UHGV virus genome: UHGV-1280366
Length of the DNA: 30,300 nucleotides
Reading direction: 5' to 3' (one strand)
Origin: a virus
Below are positions 12,483 through 26,845 of the stretch, one piece after another. Below the pieces are notes generated by a model. It saw only the letters and a list, made by a program, of their open reading frames with translations, made no database searches and was not told the origin of the DNA. The position numbers were made by a program, and so were the translations under genes. Positions within the stretch are counted from its first letter, which is position 1. Every line of letters starts with the position of its first letter.

Positions 12483-12680
12483 TTAAGATTGAATGCTTCG
12501 TAAAACGAATCCAAGGCCAGCGCTTTTTTTATTCTTTCGGTTCCACCAACGCCATCCCTTGCTACAGGCTACACTGACAATCCACTGCCCACTCCTGTAA
12601 GCCATATAAAACCAGATGAGCAAAACCTGAAGGAAGGCTATCCAGTCAATAATCGTATATTTCGCGAAGGAGTCCATCAC
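12483..12680 (-). CDS. small hydrophobic hypothetical protein (65 aa)
   Basis: ORF abutting the Lar-like gene (stop/start overlap at 12677-12680); hydrophobic, Trp-rich. Confidence 0.3.
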   Translation of the reverse strand: MMDSFAKYTIIDWIAFLQVLLIWFYMAYRSGQWIVSVACSKGWRWWNRKNKKSAGLGFVLRSIQS

Positions 12681-12973
12681 TTCACCTCCTGCGGAGTAGC
12701 CTTTACAAGCACTGGTGTAAATCCATCTTCATTAAGGTTATGAATATAGACTTCTGTTCTCCTGCGCTCTTCAACGTTTAATATTGTTTCTGGATCATAA
12801 ACCCATACTTTCATTCGACTATTCCATGAAGAAATCGCTTCAGATCTAGTTCGTTTTTCTGGTCCTTGGGCACCACATTTGCATGACACATAGCGCATTT
12901 TCCCTCTGATACTGAATGAGTATCCGATGTTAAGCACAGTGGAACCACAGAATGGGCAGCGATATAGATTCAT
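12677..12973 (-). CDS. Lar-family restriction-alleviation-like zinc-ribbon protein
   Basis: N-terminal CPFCG...CKCGA...AISSWNSR resembles the Lar family; overlaps upstream gene stop (12970-12973). Confidence 0.5.
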   Translation of the reverse strand: MNLYRCPFCGSTVLNIGYSFSIRGKMRYVSCKCGAQGPEKRTRSEAISSWNSRMKVWVYDPETILNVEERRRTEVYIHNLNEDGFTPVLVKATPQEVK

Positions 12974-14267: not shown

Positions 14268-15029
14268 TCATGCAGCCTCCTCATCTCGTGGCTTACAGAA
14301 AATACCGCACTCAAAATCCATATCCTTCATCGGCCTACCAATAGCATCTGGCGGTAGTTCATCAAGGAACATGCGAACGCCTTTATGGCGAACTAGCCTT
14401 GCTCCGATTCGACGAGACTGCTCAGCGCGATGCTGGAAAACCTCAGGGTGAACTTTTCTTACGTGATTCCAGTAAGTCGGAGATGTGGCTTTTACGCAGC
14501 CAATGCAGTTGGCGTTGTGGTATCCAAGCTGATAGATGCGAGGCAGGACAATTCCGGCCTCGAGTAAAATCGTGAAGCAGTCGCCCTTGGTAAGCCCGGC
14601 ATCAATAAGCACTGGCAGCAAGTCGTGCCGTTCATTTTTGACAAAGTTCTCTGCGCGATGTGCTTCATCTGCCGTAAATCCCAGAACAACATGGTCACAC
14701 TTATTGCTTTGCTCCCAATGCTTCCTGGCGAGCTTCTTGAGTGCTTTGGTGCATGGAGCACCTGCAATGCCAGACATGTACTGTTGGTGGTCCCACACCT
14801 CTACCGCGCTGGCATTAGGGAACATCGGATTTACTACTGACTCGATTCTGATACCCAGCCATCCCTCGACGTCATGCAGAAAGCGGACATTATCTTCATC
14901 CTCTTCAGCGACCGGGTTGTTCAACACGCGAATCTCGTGAGTATCCCCATATTTCTCAAATGTCAGCTTGGCGGCCACGGCGCTGGCAGCCCCGCAGGAA
15001 AACCAAACTGCTATTACCGGCTTGCTCAT
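14268..15029 (-). CDS. PAPS-reductase-like (PP-loop ATP pyrophosphatase superfamily) protein
   Basis: N-terminal VIAVWFSCGAASAV resembles the PP-loop SGGxDS motif; Cys-rich C-terminus; ATG 15029 overlaps the upstream stop (ATGA). Confidence 0.7.
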   Translation of the reverse strand: MSKPVIAVWFSCGAASAVAAKLTFEKYGDTHEIRVLNNPVAEEDEDNVRFLHDVEGWLGIRIESVVNPMFPNASAVEVWDHQQYMSGIAGAPCTKALKKLARKHWEQSNKCDHVVLGFTADEAHRAENFVKNERHDLLPVLIDAGLTKGDCFTILLEAGIVLPRIYQLGYHNANCIGCVKATSPTYWNHVRKVHPEVFQHRAEQSRRIGARLVRHKGVRMFLDELPPDAIGRPMKDMDFECGIFCKPRDEEAA

Positions 15030-15730
15030 GCTGCACCGCCTTTGCGAAGTTTCTGCGCCAGCCATTCGAGCGCCATTACCGGCACACCGATGTGACCAGT
15101 TCCTTCGAACTTCTTGATAAGATGCTCGATTGAAGCGTCCACACCGCTGGCCCGCACTTCAGCCAGGAAAGCGTCGGTGGCCGGGGTGTTGATTTCTGGC
15201 TTGGCATATACCGGCCAGCAATCAGTACCGTCGGAATTCTTGTGGCCAGCATCATCGTGAACATCAAGATACTCACCGCACGGGAGAGGGTCTTCCCATG
15301 TTGGCGGGATAGTGTGCCAGGATAGATAGGCTTGAGGCTTGTCAAACGCAGCCTTCAGCCCCGCATTCTCCGCAGCCAGCGCCGAAAACTTCTCGTGTGC
15401 CAACTTAACGGCTGCATCTGCCTGCCTCATTGCCTCCATTGCTTTCTCGTTATCAGTTGCTAGCGCCGCGCACTTGGCTTCAAGTTCGGCAAACTTATCA
15501 GCCACTGATTTCGGCCCGTCTTCGCCGCAAGCCTGCATCATTGATGACTCCCATGCTCTTTCTGCTGCTTCCGATAGCTTTAATTGCACTTCAAGTAATG
15601 CAATCTTTGATTCAAGCTCACCAAATTTACGCACCAGATATTCAGCGTTTGTTTCGTTAACCTTTAAATCTCGTGGGATGCATTTACCTTTCAGAAATCC
15701 ATACATCTCAATTAGTGTCATTTGTTTCAT
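15026..15730 (-). CDS. Ea22-like coiled-coil hypothetical protein
   Basis: Track start is GTG; ATG 15730 with GGAGTGGG RBS; long Ala/Glu/Lys coiled-coil segment typical of lambdoid Ea22-like proteins. Confidence 0.55.
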
Positions 15731-15887
15731 TTTTTCCCACTCCGCCACATCGCATTCAGATATTTGTTTTGATTCACTGATGGAAAAGAATTTCTCTTAA
15801 GCAATTCCTCTCTCGATGGCATTGGCTTTACGCGTTGGCGAATAATCATTTCTGCTGGAAGAATGCCGGGATTGTATGCAAGTCCTC

Positions 15888-16178
15888 TCATGATTTACTC
15901 TCCACGAACTGGTCAATAGCCATGCTAAGTGACACACCTAAATTCTCGATATGTTGCTGAATATCCTGTAGCGTCTGCGCCTGAGATAACAGGATTTCAC
16001 GGTTGCATAATTCTTTAACCAGATGCTCAAACTTGCTGTAATAACCGATACGGCTTAGTGTTTCTTTCCCTGCATTCTCGCCTTCTTTGATAATTCCTCT
16101 TTCACTAAGAATCAGGTCGTGTTTGGTTCCGGTAATAACGTATTTTCCGAGGTCGATGTTTAGCTTCATTGTTTTCAT
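15888..16178 (-). CDS. hypothetical protein (96 aa)
   Basis: Internal ATG 16178 with GAGGAA RBS; track ORF extended upstream into the neighbouring gene. Confidence 0.45.
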
Positions 16179-16188
16179 GGTAAATTCC

Positions 16189-16482
16189 TCAGTCATTACT
16201 GATAGCGCCATAGCGTGAGCGGTAATTACGCAGGCGCGGGTCAATTTCAGGGAAGTGGGTATATGTGGCTTTGCGGAATGGTCGGATTGATGTCTGGTAA
16301 ATTCGCTCGCGTTCTTCTTTCTCTGCAAGCCATATACAGTGGCGAAATTCCTTTTCCTCTTTCGTTTCCTGCGGTAGCGACATTATCCGATCGTAGTTTT
16401 TTCTGAATTTATCCAGCACCTCCGATACGGAATTGCCGGAACAGCGGCGCGCGTCATCCGCACCATACAGAGGCGCTGGCAT
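16189..16482 (-). CDS. hypothetical protein (97 aa)
   Basis: ORF with ATG start; weak RBS. Confidence 0.4.
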   Translation of the reverse strand: MPAPLYGADDARRCSGNSVSEVLDKFRKNYDRIMSLPQETKEEKEFRHCIWLAEKEERERIYQTSIRPFRKATYTHFPEIDPRLRNYRSRYGAISND

Positions 16483-16505
16483 AATGGGAGCCTTATTTTC
16501 AGTAA

Positions 16506-17093
16506 TCAGAAAGGAGGGTAATCGTTCTGGCTGTAACCATAATCATCTGCATGATTCTGGCTTACGTTTTTAGAGCGATTGTCTTTATCTTTGAGATTGG
16601 CAACCATGTTGGCGATAGTTTCTGGTTGCTTGCCTTCTGCCTTTTCTTTTAGGGTTTGACCTGTTTGTGCAATAAACGGGATGCGTATCTCCATCTGGTA
16701 ACTGTCTGCGCCAGTCTTTTTGTTTGTGGTTAATACTTTCTGGAGCACTAACCCGATTTTCTTTCCGTGAAACTCAGGAGCAACAAATTTACTGGCGGAA
16801 ACCATATGTTGCGTTAATTGCCCAATCCCGGCACACCCCATCATAGCGTGAACGACATTTGCGCCAAATTTGTTTTCCGTGCCGTCATTTTTCTGAACAC
16901 AAACGCTAAGATACTGGATTTTACGACCGTCGTCGGATTCTCCAGAAAACTCAATAAATTTGGCTCCTTTTTCTGATTGCTTTAGTTCTGCTTCAGTAAT
17001 TGTAATGATATGAGCGCCAGTTTCGTTAATAAAACCGCCTTGTCCTGCGGTCAGTGCTGCTTCTTCGTTATAAGTAAAAATCACGTTGCTCAT
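16506..17093 (-). CDS. putative single-stranded DNA-binding protein partnered with the Sak4-like ATPase
   Basis: Start overlaps the stop of the ATPase gene (ATGA); ends in an acidic/aromatic tail (...DDYGYSQNDYPPF) reminiscent of SSB C-terminal tails. Assignment is inferential. Confidence 0.5.
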   Translation of the reverse strand: MSNVIFTYNEEAALTAGQGGFINETGAHIITITEAELKQSEKGAKFIEFSGESDDGRKIQYLSVCVQKNDGTENKFGANVVHAMMGCAGIGQLTQHMVSASKFVAPEFHGKKIGLVLQKVLTTNKKTGADSYQMEIRIPFIAQTGQTLKEKAEGKQPETIANMVANLKDKDNRSKNVSQNHADDYGYSQNDYPPF

Positions 17094-17770
17094 GCGGCGT
17101 TTTCCTTAATTTGATGAACATTATTGATGCCGTAGTAATCACAAACAGTGGCATCGACGAAAGAGAGATCGTTATCAATCTCATTGGAGTCAAACATTCC
17201 CATTGGGGATTTAACAGTGTCTGCACCGTTGTTTTTTGTGGTGAAAAAGAACTGGTCATCGCGGGTAAGAGTGCGAAGAACTATAGTAAACATGCCTTCG
17301 ACAGTGATTTTCTCGTCCAGCATTTTGCCGATAGTCTTCATTTTCACGCGCCCCATAGGGGTTTCTTCGGTGTGCGCAAGAAAATAGACTCTCAGGTCAT
17401 CAGGTGCATCCTGTGCAGCCTTAATCACCTCCCATGCGTGGCGGCCTATCTCAGTAAATTTATCAAACGATTTTTCTTCTGAGCGGCGCATAAACTCATT
17501 GCTCATCACATACTGGAAGTCATCAACAATAACGATTCTTTTTCCGTATTCGTGAGCACGCTTAATTACAGCAACTATTACGTCCCATTTGTCAGTGGTA
17601 ACTACGGTTCCTTTTTTTGCTCTGGCATCCCATGCAAGCCAGTCTTTTGATTTAAATGGTAGCGGCTTGCCTATTGGTTTTATAAGTATTGCATCCTCTG
17701 GATTGATATTTCTCATGCTGGTTGATTTTCCGGTGCCAGACTCACCGAGTATTAATGTTGCAGTTCCCAT
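17090..17770 (-). CDS. Sak4-like RecA-fold ATPase (recombination/annealing module)
   Basis: Walker A GESGTGKST near the N-terminus and hhhhDD Walker B (IVIVDDFQ); size and position match Sak4-type proteins in lambdoid early-left operons. Confidence 0.7.
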   Translation of the reverse strand: MGTATLILGESGTGKSTSMRNINPEDAILIKPIGKPLPFKSKDWLAWDARAKKGTVVTTDKWDVIVAVIKRAHEYGKRIVIVDDFQYVMSNEFMRRSEEKSFDKFTEIGRHAWEVIKAAQDAPDDLRVYFLAHTEETPMGRVKMKTIGKMLDEKITVEGMFTIVLRTLTRDDQFFFTTKNNGADTVKSPMGMFDSNEIDNDLSFVDATVCDYYGINNVHQIKENAA

Positions 17771-17778
17771 AATTTTCC

Positions 17779-17967
17779 TCAGAATGGTAATTCGGATGGG
17801 GAGGAAAGAAACTCGCGCTCATTCATGCGCTCTCTTTGCGCCTGCCATAAACAAAGTTGTTTCTTTGATTTATCTCCCGCTTTACGCCAGTAACGAGCCT
17901 CAGCAATGTGATATTCTCTTTTTAATCTACTTAACTCTGGAGTTTTCGCCAGTTCTACCGGAATCAT
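17779..17967 (-). CDS. small hypothetical protein (62 aa)
   Basis: ATG 17967 with GGAGG RBS, abutting the kil-like stop. Confidence 0.4.
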   Translation of the reverse strand: MIPVELAKTPELSRLKREYHIAEARYWRKAGDKSKKQLCLWQAQRERMNEREFLSSPSELPF

Positions 17968-18077
17968 TTTGACCTCCATTTTCTGTAGGCTTCGACGGCC
18001 TCACGAAACATCTTTTCATCGCCAATAAAAGCGGCGATAGTGAATTTAGTCTGGATAGCCATAAGTGTTTTATCCAT
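17964..18077 (-). CDS. kil: Kil-like host-killing protein
   Basis: MDKTLMAIQTKFTIAAFIGDEKMFREAV... resembles lambda Kil as recalled; AGGAG RBS; sits immediately downstream of cIII as in lambda. Confidence 0.5.
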   Translation of the reverse strand: MDKTLMAIQTKFTIAAFIGDEKMFREAVEAYRKWRSK

Positions 18078-18210
18078 TTTTTGGGACTCCTGGCTGATTA
18101 AGTATGTCGATAAGGCGTTTCCACCCGTTACGTAATTTACGGGTGATTCGTTCAAGTAAAGATTCGGAAGGGCAGCCAGCAACAGGCCACCCTGCAATGG
18201 CATATTGCAT
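18070..18210 (-). CDS. cIII: CIII protease-inhibitor (stabilises CII)
   Basis: MQYAIAGWPVAGCPSESLLERITRKLRNGWKRLIDILNQPGVPKNG is near-identical to lambda CIII as recalled; AAGGAG RBS. Confidence 0.8.
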   Translation of the reverse strand: MQYAIAGWPVAGCPSESLLERITRKLRNGWKRLIDILNQPGVPKNG

Positions 18211-18270
18211 GGTGTGCTCCTTATTTATACATAACGAAAACGCCTCGAGTGAAGCGTTATTGGTATGCAT

Positions 18271-18294
18271 ATAAAAGGCCCTCAATCTGAGGGC
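18271..18294 (-). terminator. tL1-like rho-independent terminator between N and cIII
   Basis: GCCCTCA-gat-TGAGGGC hairpin followed on the minus strand by TTTTAT. Confidence 0.6.
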
Positions 18295-18387
18295 AAAGAA
18301 GATTTCCAATAATCAGAACAAGTCGGCTCCTGTTTAGTTACGAGCGACATTGCTCACATAGCAGACTCGTAAATCTGCTATAGGTGC

Positions 18388-18549
18388 TTATTCGCATCGC
18401 ATGACAACATCAAATTTTTCGAGATTACTTTGTCGCAACAATCCCTCTTCTACGCGGTCAGCTTTTCTATAATTATCAAATTCGAAATGTTTAATTACTT
18501 CTTTCGTTTCTCGCTCTATAACTTCAACGATGTATTTCTTATTCATCAT
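18388..18549 (-). CDS. small hypothetical protein (about 53 aa, MMNKKYIVEVIERETKEV...), not in the ORF track
   Basis: ATG with GGGGAAG RBS; between N and tL1 where lambdoid phages carry small genes such as ral. Confidence 0.35.
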   Translation of the reverse strand: MMNKKYIVEVIERETKEVIKHFEFDNYRKADRVEEGLLRQSNLEKFDVVMRCE

Positions 18550-18663
18550 TCTTCCCCAAGAGATTTGCTGATTGCTGACTGTGCTTTCGATACTTCATCA
18601 GGATAATGGTCATTCCAGTTTTGCTTGTATGCCTTGTTTAGCATCGCTTGCAGGGCATTCCTG

Positions 18664-18801
18664 TTATTTATCCCACCAAGTTCCGTATCTATCTATCCAG
18701 TTACACCAGTCATCGACACTCCATTTTGTTGTGTCGCATTTTGGCAACTGGCATGAATATCTACCTTCTTTGTAAAGTCGACGTTTGACTTTCTTGAGCA
18801 T
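18664..18801 (-). CDS. small Cys/Trp-rich hypothetical protein (45 aa), not in the ORF track
   Basis: ATG 18801 immediately after the N stop; open to TAA. Confidence 0.3.
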   Translation of the reverse strand: MLKKVKRRLYKEGRYSCQLPKCDTTKWSVDDWCNWIDRYGTWWDK

Positions 18802-18809
18802 GGCTCACC

Positions 18810-19115
18810 TCAATCGTAATAAGCCGGAATTGATTTTCCGCGTTGCTTCTGGCGGCCTGAGCAAGTCACCCCCATTTCACTGCGTGGCTTGCGGTAGTAA
18901 ATACGGTTCTGTTTACTCTCGACTTCTTCTGCCTTCTTGCAGCGAAGGCTTCCGAGTGAAGCTGCTTTGTCTGCTCTGACGCAACCGGAGAGCTTTAGCG
19001 CAATTTTTCGCGCCAGTCGCTGCTCTTGCATTGCCTGCTCACGTTGAGCCTGTCTGCGTGCTCTGCGGCGATTTCTGGCGTTATCGTCAGCCAGATATGT
19101 AATGACTACTGCCAT
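18810..19115 (-). CDS. N: antiterminator N (arginine-rich motif; phage-21-like)
   Basis: N-terminal ARM (NARNRRRARRQAQREQ); C-terminal ...ARKIALKLSGCVRADKAASLGSLRCKKAEEVE... matches phage 21 N as recalled; GGAGG RBS; downstream of nutL. Confidence 0.85.
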   Translation of the reverse strand: MAVVITYLADDNARNRRRARRQAQREQAMQEQRLARKIALKLSGCVRADKAASLGSLRCKKAEEVESKQNRIYYRKPRSEMGVTCSGRQKQRGKSIPAYYD

Positions 19116-19220
19116 GTTGACCTCCGATGATTGACTTTGGCGGTGACGCGCCGGGTGCTTATCTTCCGGTTGCCGTCGTGCAGCTGCACTTCACGTCACC
19201 CCAAAGCCAACTACTCTTTG

Positions 19221-19263
19221 GTTCCCGCATTTCGGCGGGACAATCCCATCAATGTTAAAGAGC
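19221..19263 (-). promoter_or_regulatory. nutL (boxA GCTCTTTAACA plus boxB hairpin TCCCGCCGAAATGCGGGA on the minus strand)
   Basis: boxA-like element 5' of a stem-loop; the boxB sequence is identical to that of nutR. Confidence 0.7.
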
Positions 19264-19299
19264 CTGCCAATCTGTTCCGTTTGGCTACCAGCGTCCTGC

Positions 19300-19380
19300 T
19301 GATGGCTTAAATTTAAGATCTCTTTAATTAATGGTCAAGAGTATTTTTGAAGAAAACTTAAATTTTCTTTCGTAACTTAA
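19300..19380 (-). promoter_or_regulatory. pL promoter with OL operators
   Basis: Minus strand: -35 TTGACC (19337-19332), 17-bp spacer, -10 TAAATT (19314-19309); overlapping ATTTAAG...CTTTAAT-type palindromes resembling P22-type operators. Confidence 0.6.
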
Positions 19381-19429
19381 GTTTGGCTTTGATTTTTAAA
19401 GGAAATAAAAAAAAGGGGCGAATGCCCCC

Positions 19430-20780: not shown

Positions 20781-20927
20781 ATGACAAAACAACTCAGTCC
20801 TTACCAGGACAAAATTCACAAACACATACTACGTGATCGCTTCCTGTCCAGCTTCAAGCAGCCTGGTCGATTCCGGGCTGAGTTGGAAAAAGTGAAGCTG
20901 ATGCAGAAGGAGAAAGGTCATGAGTAA
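20781..20927 (+). CDS. small ORF (48 aa) between cII and O, possibly P22 orf48-like
   Basis: ATG with AGGAG RBS; stop overlaps the O start region; not in the ORF track (under 60 aa). Confidence 0.4.
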
Positions 20928-21780
20928 TCTTGCAACCGTAACACATTTAAGGCCTTCACAACGGCCTGTGGAGCGTCGTGTGGCAGAAGTTGAAGATGGT
21001 TATACCCGTCTTGCAAATGCCCTGTATGAAGAGCTTATCGGCGCAGATTTAACGAAAAATCAGAGCAAGGTTGCCCACGCCATATGCCGTAAAACATACG
21101 GCTACGGTAAAAAGATGGATCGCATCTCTGATAGTCAGTTAGCTCAAATTACCAGGCTGCCAAGACAGAAGGTAAATAAGGCCAAGAATGAGCTTATCGC
21201 GATGAAGGTTATCCTTCGCGAAGGCCAGCAAATCGGGCCTAACAAGAACATCGAGGAATGGCAAATAGAAGGGTGTCACTACTCTGGTGATAATGTCACT
21301 GCATTGGTGACAAAAAGTGTCACCAAAACGGTGACAGCGCTGTCACCAAAACAGGGACACACAAAAGAAACTATTACAAAAGAAAAAAGAAATAATAAAA
21401 ACACTATGTCCGAAAGTGTTCGGACGGAGTGTGAAAAATCACATGACCGTCACGAAGAAACCGACAAGGCATTCGAGGAAATATTCTGGTGTGCAGGCAT
21501 GCGGAAAGCCGGGAAGAAAAACGCAGCTTCGGCATTCAGAACACAGTTCAGGGAATGGCGTAAAACTACCAGGGGTACGGCAAGAGAGTTTGCCACGATG
21601 CTGGCAGAAGACATCGCATGCAGGAATGGTAAGCAGTTCGGATTCGACAGGTTGTTACCATCGAGCTACCTGAACGGTCAACGCTGGAACGACGAGAAGC
21701 CAGAAACTATTCAACCACAATCCAAACCATCATCCGCAATCACCGTATCGAAAACTGGCTACGTGTTTTTCGACAGGTGA
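20920..21780 (+). CDS. O: replication initiator O-like protein with divergent C-terminal domain
   Basis: N-terminal 110 aa resemble lambda O ([14 protein letters not shown]...DLTKNQSKV...[18 protein letters not shown]...GPNKNIEEW); the gene contains the ori iterons; the C-terminal half is unlike the lambda P-interaction domain. Confidence 0.85.
21273..21400. repeat. origin of replication: iterons (GGTGACA / TGTCACC palindromic repeats) followed by AT-rich tract
   Basis: Repeated tgtcac/gtgaca units at 21273-21350 then an A-rich stretch 21361-21400, inside the O gene as in lambda ori. Confidence 0.65.
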
Positions 21781-21887
21781 ACCATGAAATCAAAAATCAA
21801 ATCGCTACTGGTCGCTGGTTATAACCACGGTTGGTTAAGTATTTCGTTTGTCGATTTCTGGTTTAAAAATCTCAATCTGAGGGAATC

Positions 21888-23768
21888 ATGACGCCAAGTG
21901 AACTCAGCGACCTGCTTTGGGCGCAGGTTGACAGGGTGGCTCCGCACCTGTTGCCAAACGGCAAGAAAGAGGGGCATGAGTGGGTTGCCGGTAACGTCAA
22001 CGGCGACAAGGGAAACAGCCTTAAGGTCAACCTTAGCGGCAAGAAAAAATGGGCTGATTTCGCTGAGGGAGACGGCGGTGACATGCTTGATTTATGGATG
22101 GCATGTCGTGGAATTAACCTGCATCAGGCTATGCAGGAAGCGAAAGCATTTCTCGGTATCAAGGATGACGATCACCATTTCGATGCCAGACGTGAGAAGA
22201 AATTCTCCAGACCTGACCGCAAGAAAATCGCCCGCTACGTTACCAGAACAGAATCCCATCTTGAGTACCTGCAATCGCGTGGCATATCTCCAGAAATCGT
22301 AAAGCGCTACGAGGTTGTCAGCGGCAAGGTGTGGAATGGAGAGCGAGAACTGGATGCTCTGGTGATTCCGTACAAACGCGATGGTGAGTTGTTGCAGGTC
22401 AAGCGAATCAGCACTGAGCGCCCGGACGGGAAGAAAGTCATTATGGCAGAAGGTGATTGCGAACCTTGTCTGTTCGGATGGCAGGCTCTGGACGCTGGCG
22501 TGAGGGCGGTTGTACTTTGCGAAGGCGAAATTGATTGTATGAGCTATGCGCAATACGGCATCTCGGCGTTATCCGTGCCGTTTGGTGGCGGGAAAGGCGC
22601 TAAGCAACAGTGGATTGAGTTTGAGTATCACAACCTCGACAGGTTTGAGGAAATATTCATCTCGATGGACGTTGATGATGTTGGTCGTGAAGCCGCAAGG
22701 GAAATCGCAAGCCGACTCGGTGAACATCGTTGCCGTCTTGTTACTCTGCCGTACAAAGACATCAACGAATGCCTGATGAACGGTGTTACCGAGGATGAAA
22801 TCTGGCAGTACATCGGCACGGCATCCTACTTCGATCCTGAAGAACTCTACAGCGCGCGAGAGTTTTACCAGGACACTATCAACGCTTTCTACGGCAAGCA
22901 GCAGTATCTGTTTAATCCACCGTGGGAATCTCTGGCAGATAAATTCCAGTTCCGTGAGGCCGAGTTGACGCTGGTCAATGGTGTGAACGGTCACGGAAAA
23001 ACGGAGGTTGTCGGGCATATGGCACTTGAGGCAATGCGTCAGGGGGTGAAGACGTGCATCGCGTCACTTGAGCTGAAGCCTGGTATTCTCCTTAAGCGCC
23101 TTACCCGTCAGGCGACGTGCTGCAAGATGCCGCCAGTGCTGGAAATTGACTCTGCATTTAAATTTTATGACGAAAGACTTTGGGTGTTTGGCCTGACCGG
23201 AACGGCGAAAGCCGACAGGCTGATCGAAATATTCGACTACGCTCGCCGCCGATACGGGATCCAGTTATTCATCATCGACAGCCTGATGAAATGTGGCATA
23301 GGCGACGATGACTATAACGGGCAGAAGGCGTTTGTTGACTCGATTTGCGACTTCAAAAACAAAACAAACTCCCACGTCATTCTCGTTACTCACTCGCGAA
23401 AAGGAGACAGCGAAGAAAAACCAACCGGGAAAATGGACGTAAAAGGCTCTGGAGCGATAACAGACCTGACAGACAACCTTTTCATCATCTGGCGTAACAA
23501 GGCTCGCGAGAGAGCGTTACAGAGAGTTCAGAGTGGTGAAAAGATGTCAGAGAAGGACGAACAGCTACTGGCATCTCCGGCATCTGTTTTGATGCTTGAA
23601 AAACAACGTAACGGCGAAGGTTGGGAAGGTGGTGTCCCGTTGTTCCTTGACGAGCAATCGCACCAGTTCCTGCAACTTGAATCAGGATCGCCATATAGCT
23701 ACATCGCCAATATGCCGAAATCGGAATATGACGAGTCGTGGCGACAGGAAAACGTGACGGAGTATTAA
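21888..23768 (+). CDS. bifunctional DNA primase (TOPRIM) / DnaB-family helicase
   Basis: TOPRIM-like motif (VVLCEGEIDCMS), Walker A GVNGHGKT and Walker B LFIIDSL; the N-terminal region resembles a primase zinc-binding domain but lacks the cysteines. Confidence 0.8.
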   Translation: MTPSELSDLLWAQVDRVAPHLLPNGKKEGHEWVAGNVNGDKGNSLKVNLSGKKKWADFAEGDGGDMLDLWMACRGINLHQAMQEAKAFLGIKDDDHHFDARREKKFSRPDRKKIARYVTRTESHLEYLQSRGISPEIVKRYEVVSGKVWNGERELDALVIPYKRDGELLQVKRISTERPDGKKVIMAEGDCEPCLFGWQALDAGVRAVVLCEGEIDCMSYAQYGISALSVPFGGGKGAKQQWIEFEYHNLDRFEEIFISMDVDDVGREAAREIASRLGEHRCRLVTLPYKDINECLMNGVTEDEIWQYIGTASYFDPEELYSAREFYQDTINAFYGKQQYLFNPPWESLADKFQFREAELTLVNGVNGHGKTEVVGHMALEAMRQGVKTCIASLELKPGILLKRLTRQATCCKMPPVLEIDSAFKFYDERLWVFGLTGTAKADRLIEIFDYARRRYGIQLFIIDSLMKCGIGDDDYNGQKAFVDSICDFKNKTNSHVILVTHSRKGDSEEKPTGKMDVKGSGAITDLTDNLFIIWRNKARERALQRVQSGEKMSEKDEQLLASPASVLMLEKQRNGEGWEGGVPLFLDEQSHQFLQLESGSPYSYIANMPKSEYDESWRQENVTEY

Positions 23769-23845: not shown

Positions 23846-24286
23846 ATGAAAAAACTAACCTTTGAAATTCGATCTCCAGCACATCAGCAAAACGCTATTC
23901 ACGCAGTACAGCAAATCCTTCCAGACCCAACCAAACCAATCGTAGTAACCATTCAGGAACGCAACCGCAGCTTAGACCAAAACAGGAAGCTATGGGCCTG
24001 CTTAGGTGACGTCTCTCGTCAGGTTGAATGGCATGGTCGCTGGCTGGATGCAGAAAGCTGGAAGTGTGTGTTTACCGCAGCATTAAAGCAGCAGGATGTT
24101 GTTCCTAACCTTGCCGGGAATGGCTTTGTGGCAATAGGCCAGTCAACCAGCAGGATGCGTGTAAGCGAATTTGCGGAGCTATTAGAGCTTATACAGGCAT
24201 TCGGTACAGAGCGTGGCGTTAAGTGGTCAGACGAAGCGCGACTGGCTCTGGAGTGGAAAGCGCGATGGGGAGATCGGGCTGCATGA
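23846..24286 (+). CDS. ninB: NinB (Orf) recombination mediator
   Basis: Near-identical to lambda NinB as recalled (MKKLTFEIRSPAHQQNAIHAVQQILPDPTKPIVVTIQERNRSLDQNRKLWACL...). Confidence 0.9.
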   Translation: MKKLTFEIRSPAHQQNAIHAVQQILPDPTKPIVVTIQERNRSLDQNRKLWACLGDVSRQVEWHGRWLDAESWKCVFTAALKQQDVVPNLAGNGFVAIGQSTSRMRVSEFAELLELIQAFGTERGVKWSDEARLALEWKARWGDRAA

Positions 24287-24810
24287 CTATCAAATCAAAT
24301 ACGCCAGCACACGACAAGGACTGCTGGCAAACGCCGCTTTGGCTTTTTGATGCACTGGATATTGAATTTGGATTCTGGCTGGATTCGGCAGCGAGCGACA
24401 AAAATGCTCTGTGCGCTCACTGGCTAACTGAGGCTGACGACGCGCTAAATTCTGAGTGGATAAGCCACGGTGCAATCTGGAATAACCCACCGTACAGCAA
24501 TATCAGGCCGTGGGTGGAAAAAGCCGCTGAGCAGTGCATACAACAGCGACAGACGGTAGTTATGCTTGTGCCAGAGGATATGTCAGTCGGATGGTTCAGC
24601 AAGGCTCTGGAGAGTGTCGACGAAGTTCGCATTATCACTGATGGACGGATTAATTTTATCGAACCATCGACAGGGCTGGAGAAGAAGGGAAACAGCAAAG
24701 GCTCCATGCTGCTGATTTGGCGACCGTTCATCAGTCCTCGACGGATGTTTACTACCGTATCCAAAGCGGCATTGATGGCGATCGGGCAGGGCGTCAGGAG
24801 GGCGGCATGA
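24283..24810 (+). CDS. dam: phage DNA N6-adenine methyltransferase (Dam family)
   Basis: [13 protein letters not shown]...FDLD-like N-terminal motif and NPPY catalytic motif; ATGA overlap with the ninB stop; sits where lambda has ninC. Confidence 0.8.
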
Positions 24811-26203: not shown

Positions 26204-26486
26204 CCTACGCAAAGAAGCGCGCGGCAGAGAATGCCAGGTACGTATTTACGGCGTATGCAATGGCAACCCTGAAACTACAGTTCTGGCACATTACCGGATG
26301 GCTGGAATTTGCGGAACGGGAATGAAGCCTGACGACCTGATCGGCGCATGGGCTTGTAGCGCGTGTCACGATGAAATCGACCGACGCACCCATAACCTCG
26401 ACAACAAAGACGCCAGACTTTACCACCTCGAAGGCGTGATCAGGACGCAGGCGATACTGCTGAAGGAGGGGAAGATTAAGTCATGA
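26196..26486 (+). CDS. DUF1364-family (YbcO-like) zinc-binding nin-region protein
   Basis: 96 aa with CxxC...CxxCH pattern; positioned immediately upstream of rusA as ybcO is in DLP12. Confidence 0.7.
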   Translation: MANLRKEARGRECQVRIYGVCNGNPETTVLAHYRMAGICGTGMKPDDLIGAWACSACHDEIDRRTHNLDNKDARLYHLEGVIRTQAILLKEGKIKS

Positions 26487-26845
26487 ACGAATATCAGTTT
26501 GTGCTTCCATACCCGCCGTCGGTGAATACCTACTGGCGAAGACGGGGAAGCCAATACTACATCAGCGATAAAGGCCAGAAATACCGAAAAGACGTTCAGC
26601 AAATCATCCACCAACTCAAGTTAGATATTTTCACCAAATCACGACTCCGCATCAAAGTCATCGCAGACGTTCCAGACTCCCGCCGCCGCGACCTCGATAA
26701 CATCCTGAAAGGTTTACTCGACTCCCTTATCCACGCCGGATTTGCGGAAGACGACGAGCAATTCGATGACATTCGCGTAATTCGTGGCGTGAAAGTACCA
26801 GGCGGAAGGCTTGGAATAAAAATCACCGAACTGGAGAACGTATGA
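26483..26845 (+). CDS. rusA: RusA Holliday-junction resolvase
   Basis: 120 aa; conserved motifs (LPYPPSVN.YWR, PDSRRRDLDN, GGRLGIKITE) match RusA. Confidence 0.9.
   Translation: MNEYQFVLPYPPSVNTYWRRRGSQYYISDKGQKYRKDVQQIIHQLKLDIFTKSRLRIKVIADVPDSRRRDLDNILKGLLDSLIHAGFAEDDEQFDDIRVIRGVKVPGGRLGIKITELENV

Follow-up and report, generated by a model that had tools for sequence, protein, structure and literature searches.

Which recombination functions serve a lambdoid early-left operon that keeps cIII and kil and is devoid of Red-beta/Exo and Erf? This question is raised by positions 16506-17770 of the virus genome UHGV-1280366, of which a stretch of 30,300 nucleotides (referred to as the window) was analyzed. 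An earlier note had read this span, from its letters, as a recombination module formed by a Sak4-like RecA-fold ATPase and an SSB-like partner with an acidic tail, which had replaced the original cassette by mosaic exchange. A six-frame ORF list showed that the coordinates of the two genes correspond exactly to this span. Our analysis identified the pair as a near-identical copy of an experimentally characterized and widespread phage module, that of phage HK620, and hence as already known.

Organization of the early-left operon

The layout of the window is that of a P22-like/lambdoid temperate phage. The cI/cro/cII immunity region and a pL-like promoter are located to the right of a leftward gene string, and injection proteins, ant, tailspike, int/xis, an O-like initiator together with a primase/helicase, nin genes, Q, and a lysis cassette are found elsewhere. 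On DNA level, the best matches to the whole window are mosaic (JEP4, mEp043, HK620, and N7; ~40% coverage, 96-97% identity). The leftward string is tightly packed and reads, in order of transcription, N-like, three small ORFs, cIII, kil, hkaM-like, sak4, ssb, and abc2. Its assigned features are as follows.

18810..19115, leftward gene string: N-like antiterminator
18070..18210 (-): cIII, 46 aa, FtsH inhibitor and CII stabilizer (Pfam Lambda_CIII, E = 1.1e-29, residues 35-76 of ORF 18070..18309)
17964..18077 (-): kil, 37 aa, host septation inhibitor (Pfam Lambda_Kil, E = 3.6e-20, residues 44-74 of the 79-aa ORF 17964..18203)
17779..17979 (-): hkaM-like small ORF opening the module, 62 aa (ATG 17967, HK620 annotation) or 66 aa (ATG 17979), PHROG 1723
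17090..17770 (-): sak4 (hkaL homolog), 226 aa, predicted core-only, RecA/Rad51-paralog-like ATP-dependent single-strand annealing protein, PHROG 2872
16506..17093 (-): ssb (hkaK homolog), 195 aa, DUF669/N4-gp45-type phage SSB ("SSB-2") with a C-terminal NDYPPF tip, PHROG 743
16189..16482 (-): abc2, predicted anti-RecBCD protein (RecBCD modifier) and final gene of the Rec module (Pfam Anti-RecBCD_p2, PHROG 656)

The whole four-gene HK620 Rec module hkaM–sak4–ssb–abc2 is thereby present downstream of cIII and kil. Two of its members, abc2 and the hkaM-like ORF, had gone unmentioned in the earlier note. The Pfam match of abc2 is full-length (E = 5.6e-63, positions 1-97 of 97). The retention of kil and cIII stated in that note is borne out by the Pfam matches given above, and both genes have the lengths of the HK620 annotations (114 and 141 nt, respectively). 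The stated absence of Red-beta/Exo and Erf held as well, since PHROG scans of all sizeable early-left-operon ORFs from int to N revealed no member of the Redβ, Exo, Erf, RecT, RecE, or Gam families. The same scans led us to reject the idea that another part of the left operon encodes an additional annealase (Redβ, Erf, or RecT).

A promoter and terminator scan of 15800..19400 located a pL-like promoter (19338..19310) and tL2-like terminator hairpins upstream of cIII, matching the HK620 annotation, and no internal minus-strand promoter within the module was convincing beyond chance. The gaps between the sak4–ssb pair and its neighbors amount to 8 and 23 nt. Within the pair, the stop codon of sak4 and the start codon of ssb share the four bases ATGA, an overlap typical of translationally coupled genes, which suggests coupling of the two; RNA folding at this junction yielded a z-score of -0.05 and thus no coupling structure there.

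Fold and family of the Sak4 protein

The 226-aa protein was assigned to PHROG 2872 ("Sak4-like ssDNA annealing protein") with E = 4.3e-108 over residues 1-220. It carries a Walker A motif (GESGTGKS, residues 9-16) and a Walker B motif (IVIVDD, residues 79-84), and the positions G9, S11, G12, G14, K15, D83, and D84 are unchanged in 34 homologs down to 54% identity. Direct Pfam matches are restricted to AAA_24 and AAA_22, both barely exceeding the gathering scores. Searching PDB sequences with phmmer gave no match to Sak4, and a profile hmmsearch gave P-loop-local matches only (E ~0.8); for the SSB, phmmer returned only noise and the profile hmmsearch nothing, so that no SSB was found. Sequence-only remote homology was therefore uninformative for both proteins and fold prediction was needed. 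For this purpose, homolog alignments were made from database relatives of Sak4 (34) and the SSB (32).

The AlphaFold (AF2) model of Sak4 (pLDDT 85.4, pTM 0.86) retrieved 293 PDB matches at E <= 1e-3 in Foldseek, with RAD51D, XRCC3, RAD51C, RAD51, archaeal RadA, RecA, and KaiC ranking at the top. RAD51 paralogs, RadA, RecA, and the Sak4 of the staphylococcal phage 52A (8rc5) were matched with a Foldseek probability of 1.00 and E-values from 5e-7 to 8e-6. Normalized to the longer recombinases, the TM-score of the model is ~0.33-0.40, versus 0.52 to the 219-residue Sak4 chain of 8rc5. With the latter, the protein has the RecA-core-only fold in common (TM 0.51/0.52), although the aligned structures are only 15% identical in sequence. 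The model confirmed Sak4 as a predicted RecA/Rad51 core fold that lacks the additional DNA-binding domain of ~70 residues. The claim of a Sak4-like RecA-fold ATPase is in consequence upheld by family assignment, Walker motifs, and fold model alike.

One could read the same protein as a generic P-loop/AAA ATPase without a role as recombinase. Its RefSeq names ("AAA family ATPase" or "ATP-binding protein"), the near-threshold AAA_24/AAA_22 matches as the only direct Pfam matches, and the restriction of the PDB-sequence profile search to the P-loop would agree with such a reading. The PHROG Sak4 assignment (E = 4e-108), a fold search dominated by RAD51, RadA, RecA, and Sak4, and, above all, 99% identity to a protein with demonstrated annealase activity speak against it. 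As it is already refuted by published biochemistry, we assign it a negligible probability and regard the protein as a Sak4 annealase.

The SSB partner

The 195-aa protein belongs to PHROG 743 ("single strand DNA binding protein", E = 5.9e-67). Its C-terminus reads ...HADDYGYSQNDYPPF, with the tip NDYPPF intact. This tail is modestly acidic, containing three Asp among its last 15 residues, and all 32 homologs retain its terminal Phe, preceded by an acidic patch. Close homologs carry the NCBI name "DUF669 domain-containing protein"; hmmscan of the protein against Pfam-A revealed no family and no DUF669 even at E <= 10. Support for the DUF669 label thus comes from source annotations, structural neighbors, and a statement in the literature (PMC5928155).

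In the AF2 model of the SSB (pLDDT 79.6), a disordered tail starts at residue 177. The best PDB match in Foldseek is the pCF10 OB-fold protein PrgE (E = 1.6e-3, TM 0.41/0.58). Bacterial SSBs were matched in large number and weakly (E = 0.01-0.1, TM 0.2-0.4), with GFP-type barrels intermixed as noise. Comparison with the viral models of BFVD retrieved DUF669 proteins and annotated N4-like phage SSBs at E = 3e-12 to 4e-7. N4 gp45-type/DUF669 SSBs and PrgE are thus the best structural matches, at low sequence identity (13-24%). The protein clearly belongs to the DUF669/N4-gp45-type lineage and not to the classical bacterial SSBs. In agreement, the HK620 homolog HkaK was linked to N4 gp45, described as an atypical SSB, by HHsearch and to SSB via intermediates, but HHpred did not match it to E. 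coli SSB directly (PMC5928155). On homology of this SSB type to bacterial SSB, the literature is divided (PMC12315714 vs PMC5928155).

The fold predictions, proposed in the earlier note as a check for both proteins, hence turned out RecA/Rad51-like for Sak4 and, for its partner, grouping with DUF669 and N4-like SSBs and weakly with OB-fold SSBs. The description of this partner as an SSB-like protein with an acidic tail needs to be amended: SSB family and tail stand, given PHROG 743 and a tip that is functional in HK620, but the tail is only modestly acidic and the protein is not a classical bacterial SSB.

Membership in a fold group shared with N4-like phage SSBs, together with the characterization of N4 gp45 as an atypical SSB, would also fit a general replicative SSB of the phage that lies beside sak4 by chance and is not specifically coupled to it in function. 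The ATGA overlap suggests coupling, however, and up to 80% of sak4 genes adjoin an ssb gene (PMC5928155). Furthermore, the 99%-identical HK620 protein was directly shown to stimulate Sak4 in a tail-dependent manner and to recruit it onto SSB-coated ssDNA. The published data on the truncated variant SSBΔ6 (PMC5928155) have largely refuted chance adjacency already, and we judge it very improbable compared with a functional Sak4–SSB pair.

Identity to HK620 and distribution of the module

Megablast of the region returned 455 phage records, the best being HK620 and HK629 with 97% DNA identity over hkaM–hkaL–hkaK–hkaJ–kil–cIII. On protein level, the four products compare with those of HK620 as follows.

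sak4 vs HkaL: 224/226 identical (99%); substitutions D26E and D43E
ssb vs HkaK: 193/195 identical (99%); substitutions E153V and N166S; last 15 residues identical
abc2 vs HkaJ: 94/98 identical (96%); one-residue deletion
hkaM-like vs HkaM: 61/62 identical (98%)

The window and the HK620 Rec module (HkaM, HkaL, HkaK, HkaJ) have gene order, orientation, ATGA overlap, NDYPPF tail, Walker motifs, and the place downstream of cIII–kil in common. Sak4 and the SSB differ from their HK620 counterparts by two residues each, the changes in Sak4 being conservative and all four lying outside the Walker motifs and the tail. Abc2 is one residue shorter, and the DNA diverges downstream of abc2, the megablast match to HK620 beginning at about window position 16175. 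In this adjacent region, 15888..16178 (-) within the ORF 15888..16328 encodes a DUF5405/phrog_154 protein ("replication initiation protein") where HK620 has hkaI/hkaH. Sources for the HK620 Rec module are reportedly Clark et al. 2001 and Lopes et al. 2010. A further source is Hutinet et al. 2018 (PMC5928155).

The module is widespread. A sak4–ssb pair occurs in 303 out of 5,426 complete E. coli genomes, every copy being chromosomal. There, RefSeq names sak4 "AAA family ATPase" or "ATP-binding protein", and ssb is listed as "DUF669" or "hypothetical protein". The 90%-identity clusters of the two proteins comprise 1,036 and 1,407 member sequences. In many Stx2a-converting phages (records LC616031-LC616055), the module is 94% identical and split in two to three BLAST pieces, the total span of which exceeds that of the query by ~400 bp to 1.7 kb, suggesting insertions inside or beside it; these records come without annotation.

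Published biochemistry and proposed mechanism

Purified HK620 Sak4 requires ATP for ssDNA binding and for annealing of complementary strands (PMC5928155). On its own it is a weak annealase, increasing oligo recombineering 15-fold, and neither strand exchange in vitro nor stimulation of RecA was observed (PMC5928155). The whole four-gene module increases recombineering 210-fold, a level fully restored by sak4 and ssb, with no further gain from abc2, the product of which redirects RecBCD (PMC5928155). An SSB without its last six residues (NDYPPF) lowered recombineering 10-fold and abolished the binding of Sak4 to SSB-coated ssDNA (PMC5928155). The recombineering assay in E. coli that the earlier note had suggested for this pair was consequently already published in 2018 for the HK620 proteins (PMC5928155).

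This mechanism is assigned to the proteins of the window because they are 99% identical to those of HK620. On this basis, the locus is with high probability an HK620-type Rec module of a P22-like/lambdoid temperate phage which acts by the HK620 Sak4–SSB mechanism. Transcription would proceed leftward from pL through N, cIII, and kil into the module, which fills the slot of lambda gam–bet–exo. The phage SSB would coat ssDNA, and the DNA-bound SSB would recruit Sak4 through its C-terminal NDYPPF tip. Being a RecA-core-only ATPase, Sak4 would then bind the ssDNA and anneal complementary strands in an ATP-dependent manner, presumably not catalyzing strand exchange of the RecA type. Abc2, in turn, would alter the host RecBCD in such a way that phage DNA ends are processed and not destroyed. 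Biologically, the module likely serves recombination-dependent replication or the formation of concatemers, and also mosaic exchange between genomes.

The relative weight of these roles can be seen differently. The pair may serve mainly replication, i.e., a recombination-dependent or rolling-circle switch and the formation of concatemers, with recombineering as a side activity. According to Neamah et al. 2017, as cited in PMC5928155, staphylococcal phages depend on Sak/Sak4 for growth and produce hardly any genome multimers in their absence, ssb mutants showing a similar but weaker phenotype. In addition, lambdoid Rec modules have been implicated in the theta-to-sigma switch (PMC12315714), and the replication module of the window consists of an O-like protein and a primase/helicase and not of O/P. 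We consider this emphasis on replication a serious option, albeit not the favored one. The annealing mechanism is common to both views, which differ only in emphasis, and the assignment as an HK620-type Sak4–SSB annealing pair applies to either.

The HkaM-like protein

HkaM, the product of the first gene of the module, is an orphan of unknown function (PMC5928155). Its counterpart in the window (62-66 aa) has a basic body and the C-terminus ...SPSELPF. Among 1.84 billion representative proteins, 16 relatives were detected, and in an alignment of the short full-length ones the C-terminal P-F is conserved to at least 90%, down to ~45% identity, the tips being ELPF, EMPF, EPPF, DLPF, DMPF, and NCPF. 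Such a [D/E]-x-P-F end resembles both the C-terminus of E. coli SSB (DDDIPF) and the tip of the HK620 SSB (NDYPPF). No meaningful Pfam family was matched at E <= 10. PHROG labels the protein "recombinase"; an experimental basis for this label was not found.

Judged from its tail, HkaM might conceivably be an SSB-C-terminus mimic or adaptor, a speculation to which we attach a low probability. If true, it could dock in the Sak4 pocket used by the SSB tip, or on members of the host SSB interactome such as ExoI, RecQ, PriA, or RecO, and would in this way tune recombination or hijack the host. The whole module including hkaM brought no gain in oligo recombineering over sak4 and ssb (PMC5928155). 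The papers listed by a full-text search for "HkaM" were all unrelated, and none reporting an SSB-like tail for this protein was found.

Further recombination and DNA genes of the window

The nin region encodes a NinB/Orf recombination mediator (23846..24286 (+), phrog_72), a RusA Holliday-junction resolvase (26483..26845 (+), phrog_34), and a DNA methyltransferase (24223..24810 (+), phrog_111). The recombination toolkit of the phage therefore reaches beyond the pL module. NinB/Orf and RusA are accessory recombination functions and not annealases of the Redβ/Erf/RecT kind.

At 20920..23768 (+), an O-like initiator (286 aa) is followed by a fused primase/helicase of 626 aa (phrog_239, E = 2e-171). 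Lambda and HK620 have an O/P (DnaB-loader) pair instead, which makes this arrangement another mosaic swap in comparison with HK620.

Downstream of the Rec module, the early-left operon contains a 265-aa phosphoadenosine-phosphosulfate-reductase-like protein (14268..15065 (-), phrog_424, E = 4.5e-43); a moron, an auxiliary metabolic function, and a role in DNA modification are all conceivable for it. A Lar-like restriction-alleviation protein (12677..12973 (-), phrog_599, E = 4e-18) is encoded close to the int-proximal end, so that the left operon has a Lar-like anti-restriction function in addition to the anti-RecBCD gene abc2.

Chi sites (GCTGGTGG) occur twice in 30.3 kb, at 1748 and 3845, both on the plus strand and in the part encoding virion genes. 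The window is therefore not Chi-rich. Many Chi sites were described for phage LLS, a lambdoid phage without a Rec module, in a 2025 survey (PMC12315714).

Comparison with other recombination systems and significance

Lambda Red (Gam–Beta–Exo) and the P22 module Arf–Erf–Abc1–Abc2 occupy the same slot of the pL operon as the module of the window. All three combine an annealing protein with a countermeasure against RecBCD, and Abc2 is common to the window and P22. In contrast to lambda Red and P22, the annealase of the window is an ATPase of the RecA/Rad51 fold instead of a Rad52-like ring protein. It depends on ATP and on its cognate SSB, and the module is without an exonuclease of its own. Its position in the gam–bet–exo slot and the documented shuffling among lambdoid phages (PMC12315714) substantiate the proposed mosaic exchange of the recombination cassette. 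This Rec-module shuffling was surveyed in 2025 with HK620 as one of the prototypes (PMC12315714).

In respect to phage defense, Sak4 had been put forward as a trigger or target of defense systems. This is documented for two phages of Gram-positive hosts, the Sak4 proteins of which follow the same family concept as that of the window, usually with an adjacent ssb gene: in the lactococcal phage 31, Sak4 was named as AbiK-escape locus (PMC5928155), and in the staphylococcal phage 52A it is bound and inhibited by Stl2 of SaPI2. The claim stands for Gram-positive phage Sak4 only; for enterobacterial Sak4, no report of an AbiK- or Stl2-like defense interaction was found in the literature.

The Sak4–SSB pair is a known and modest recombineering tool. 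The value of the present finding is mostly one of annotation, the RefSeq labels of both genes being generic, and calling them the HK620 Sak4–SSB annealing pair improves the annotation of phages and prophages. Among lambdoid phages, mosaicism of Rec modules has already been catalogued (PMC12315714), and the module of the window illustrates it in textbook fashion.
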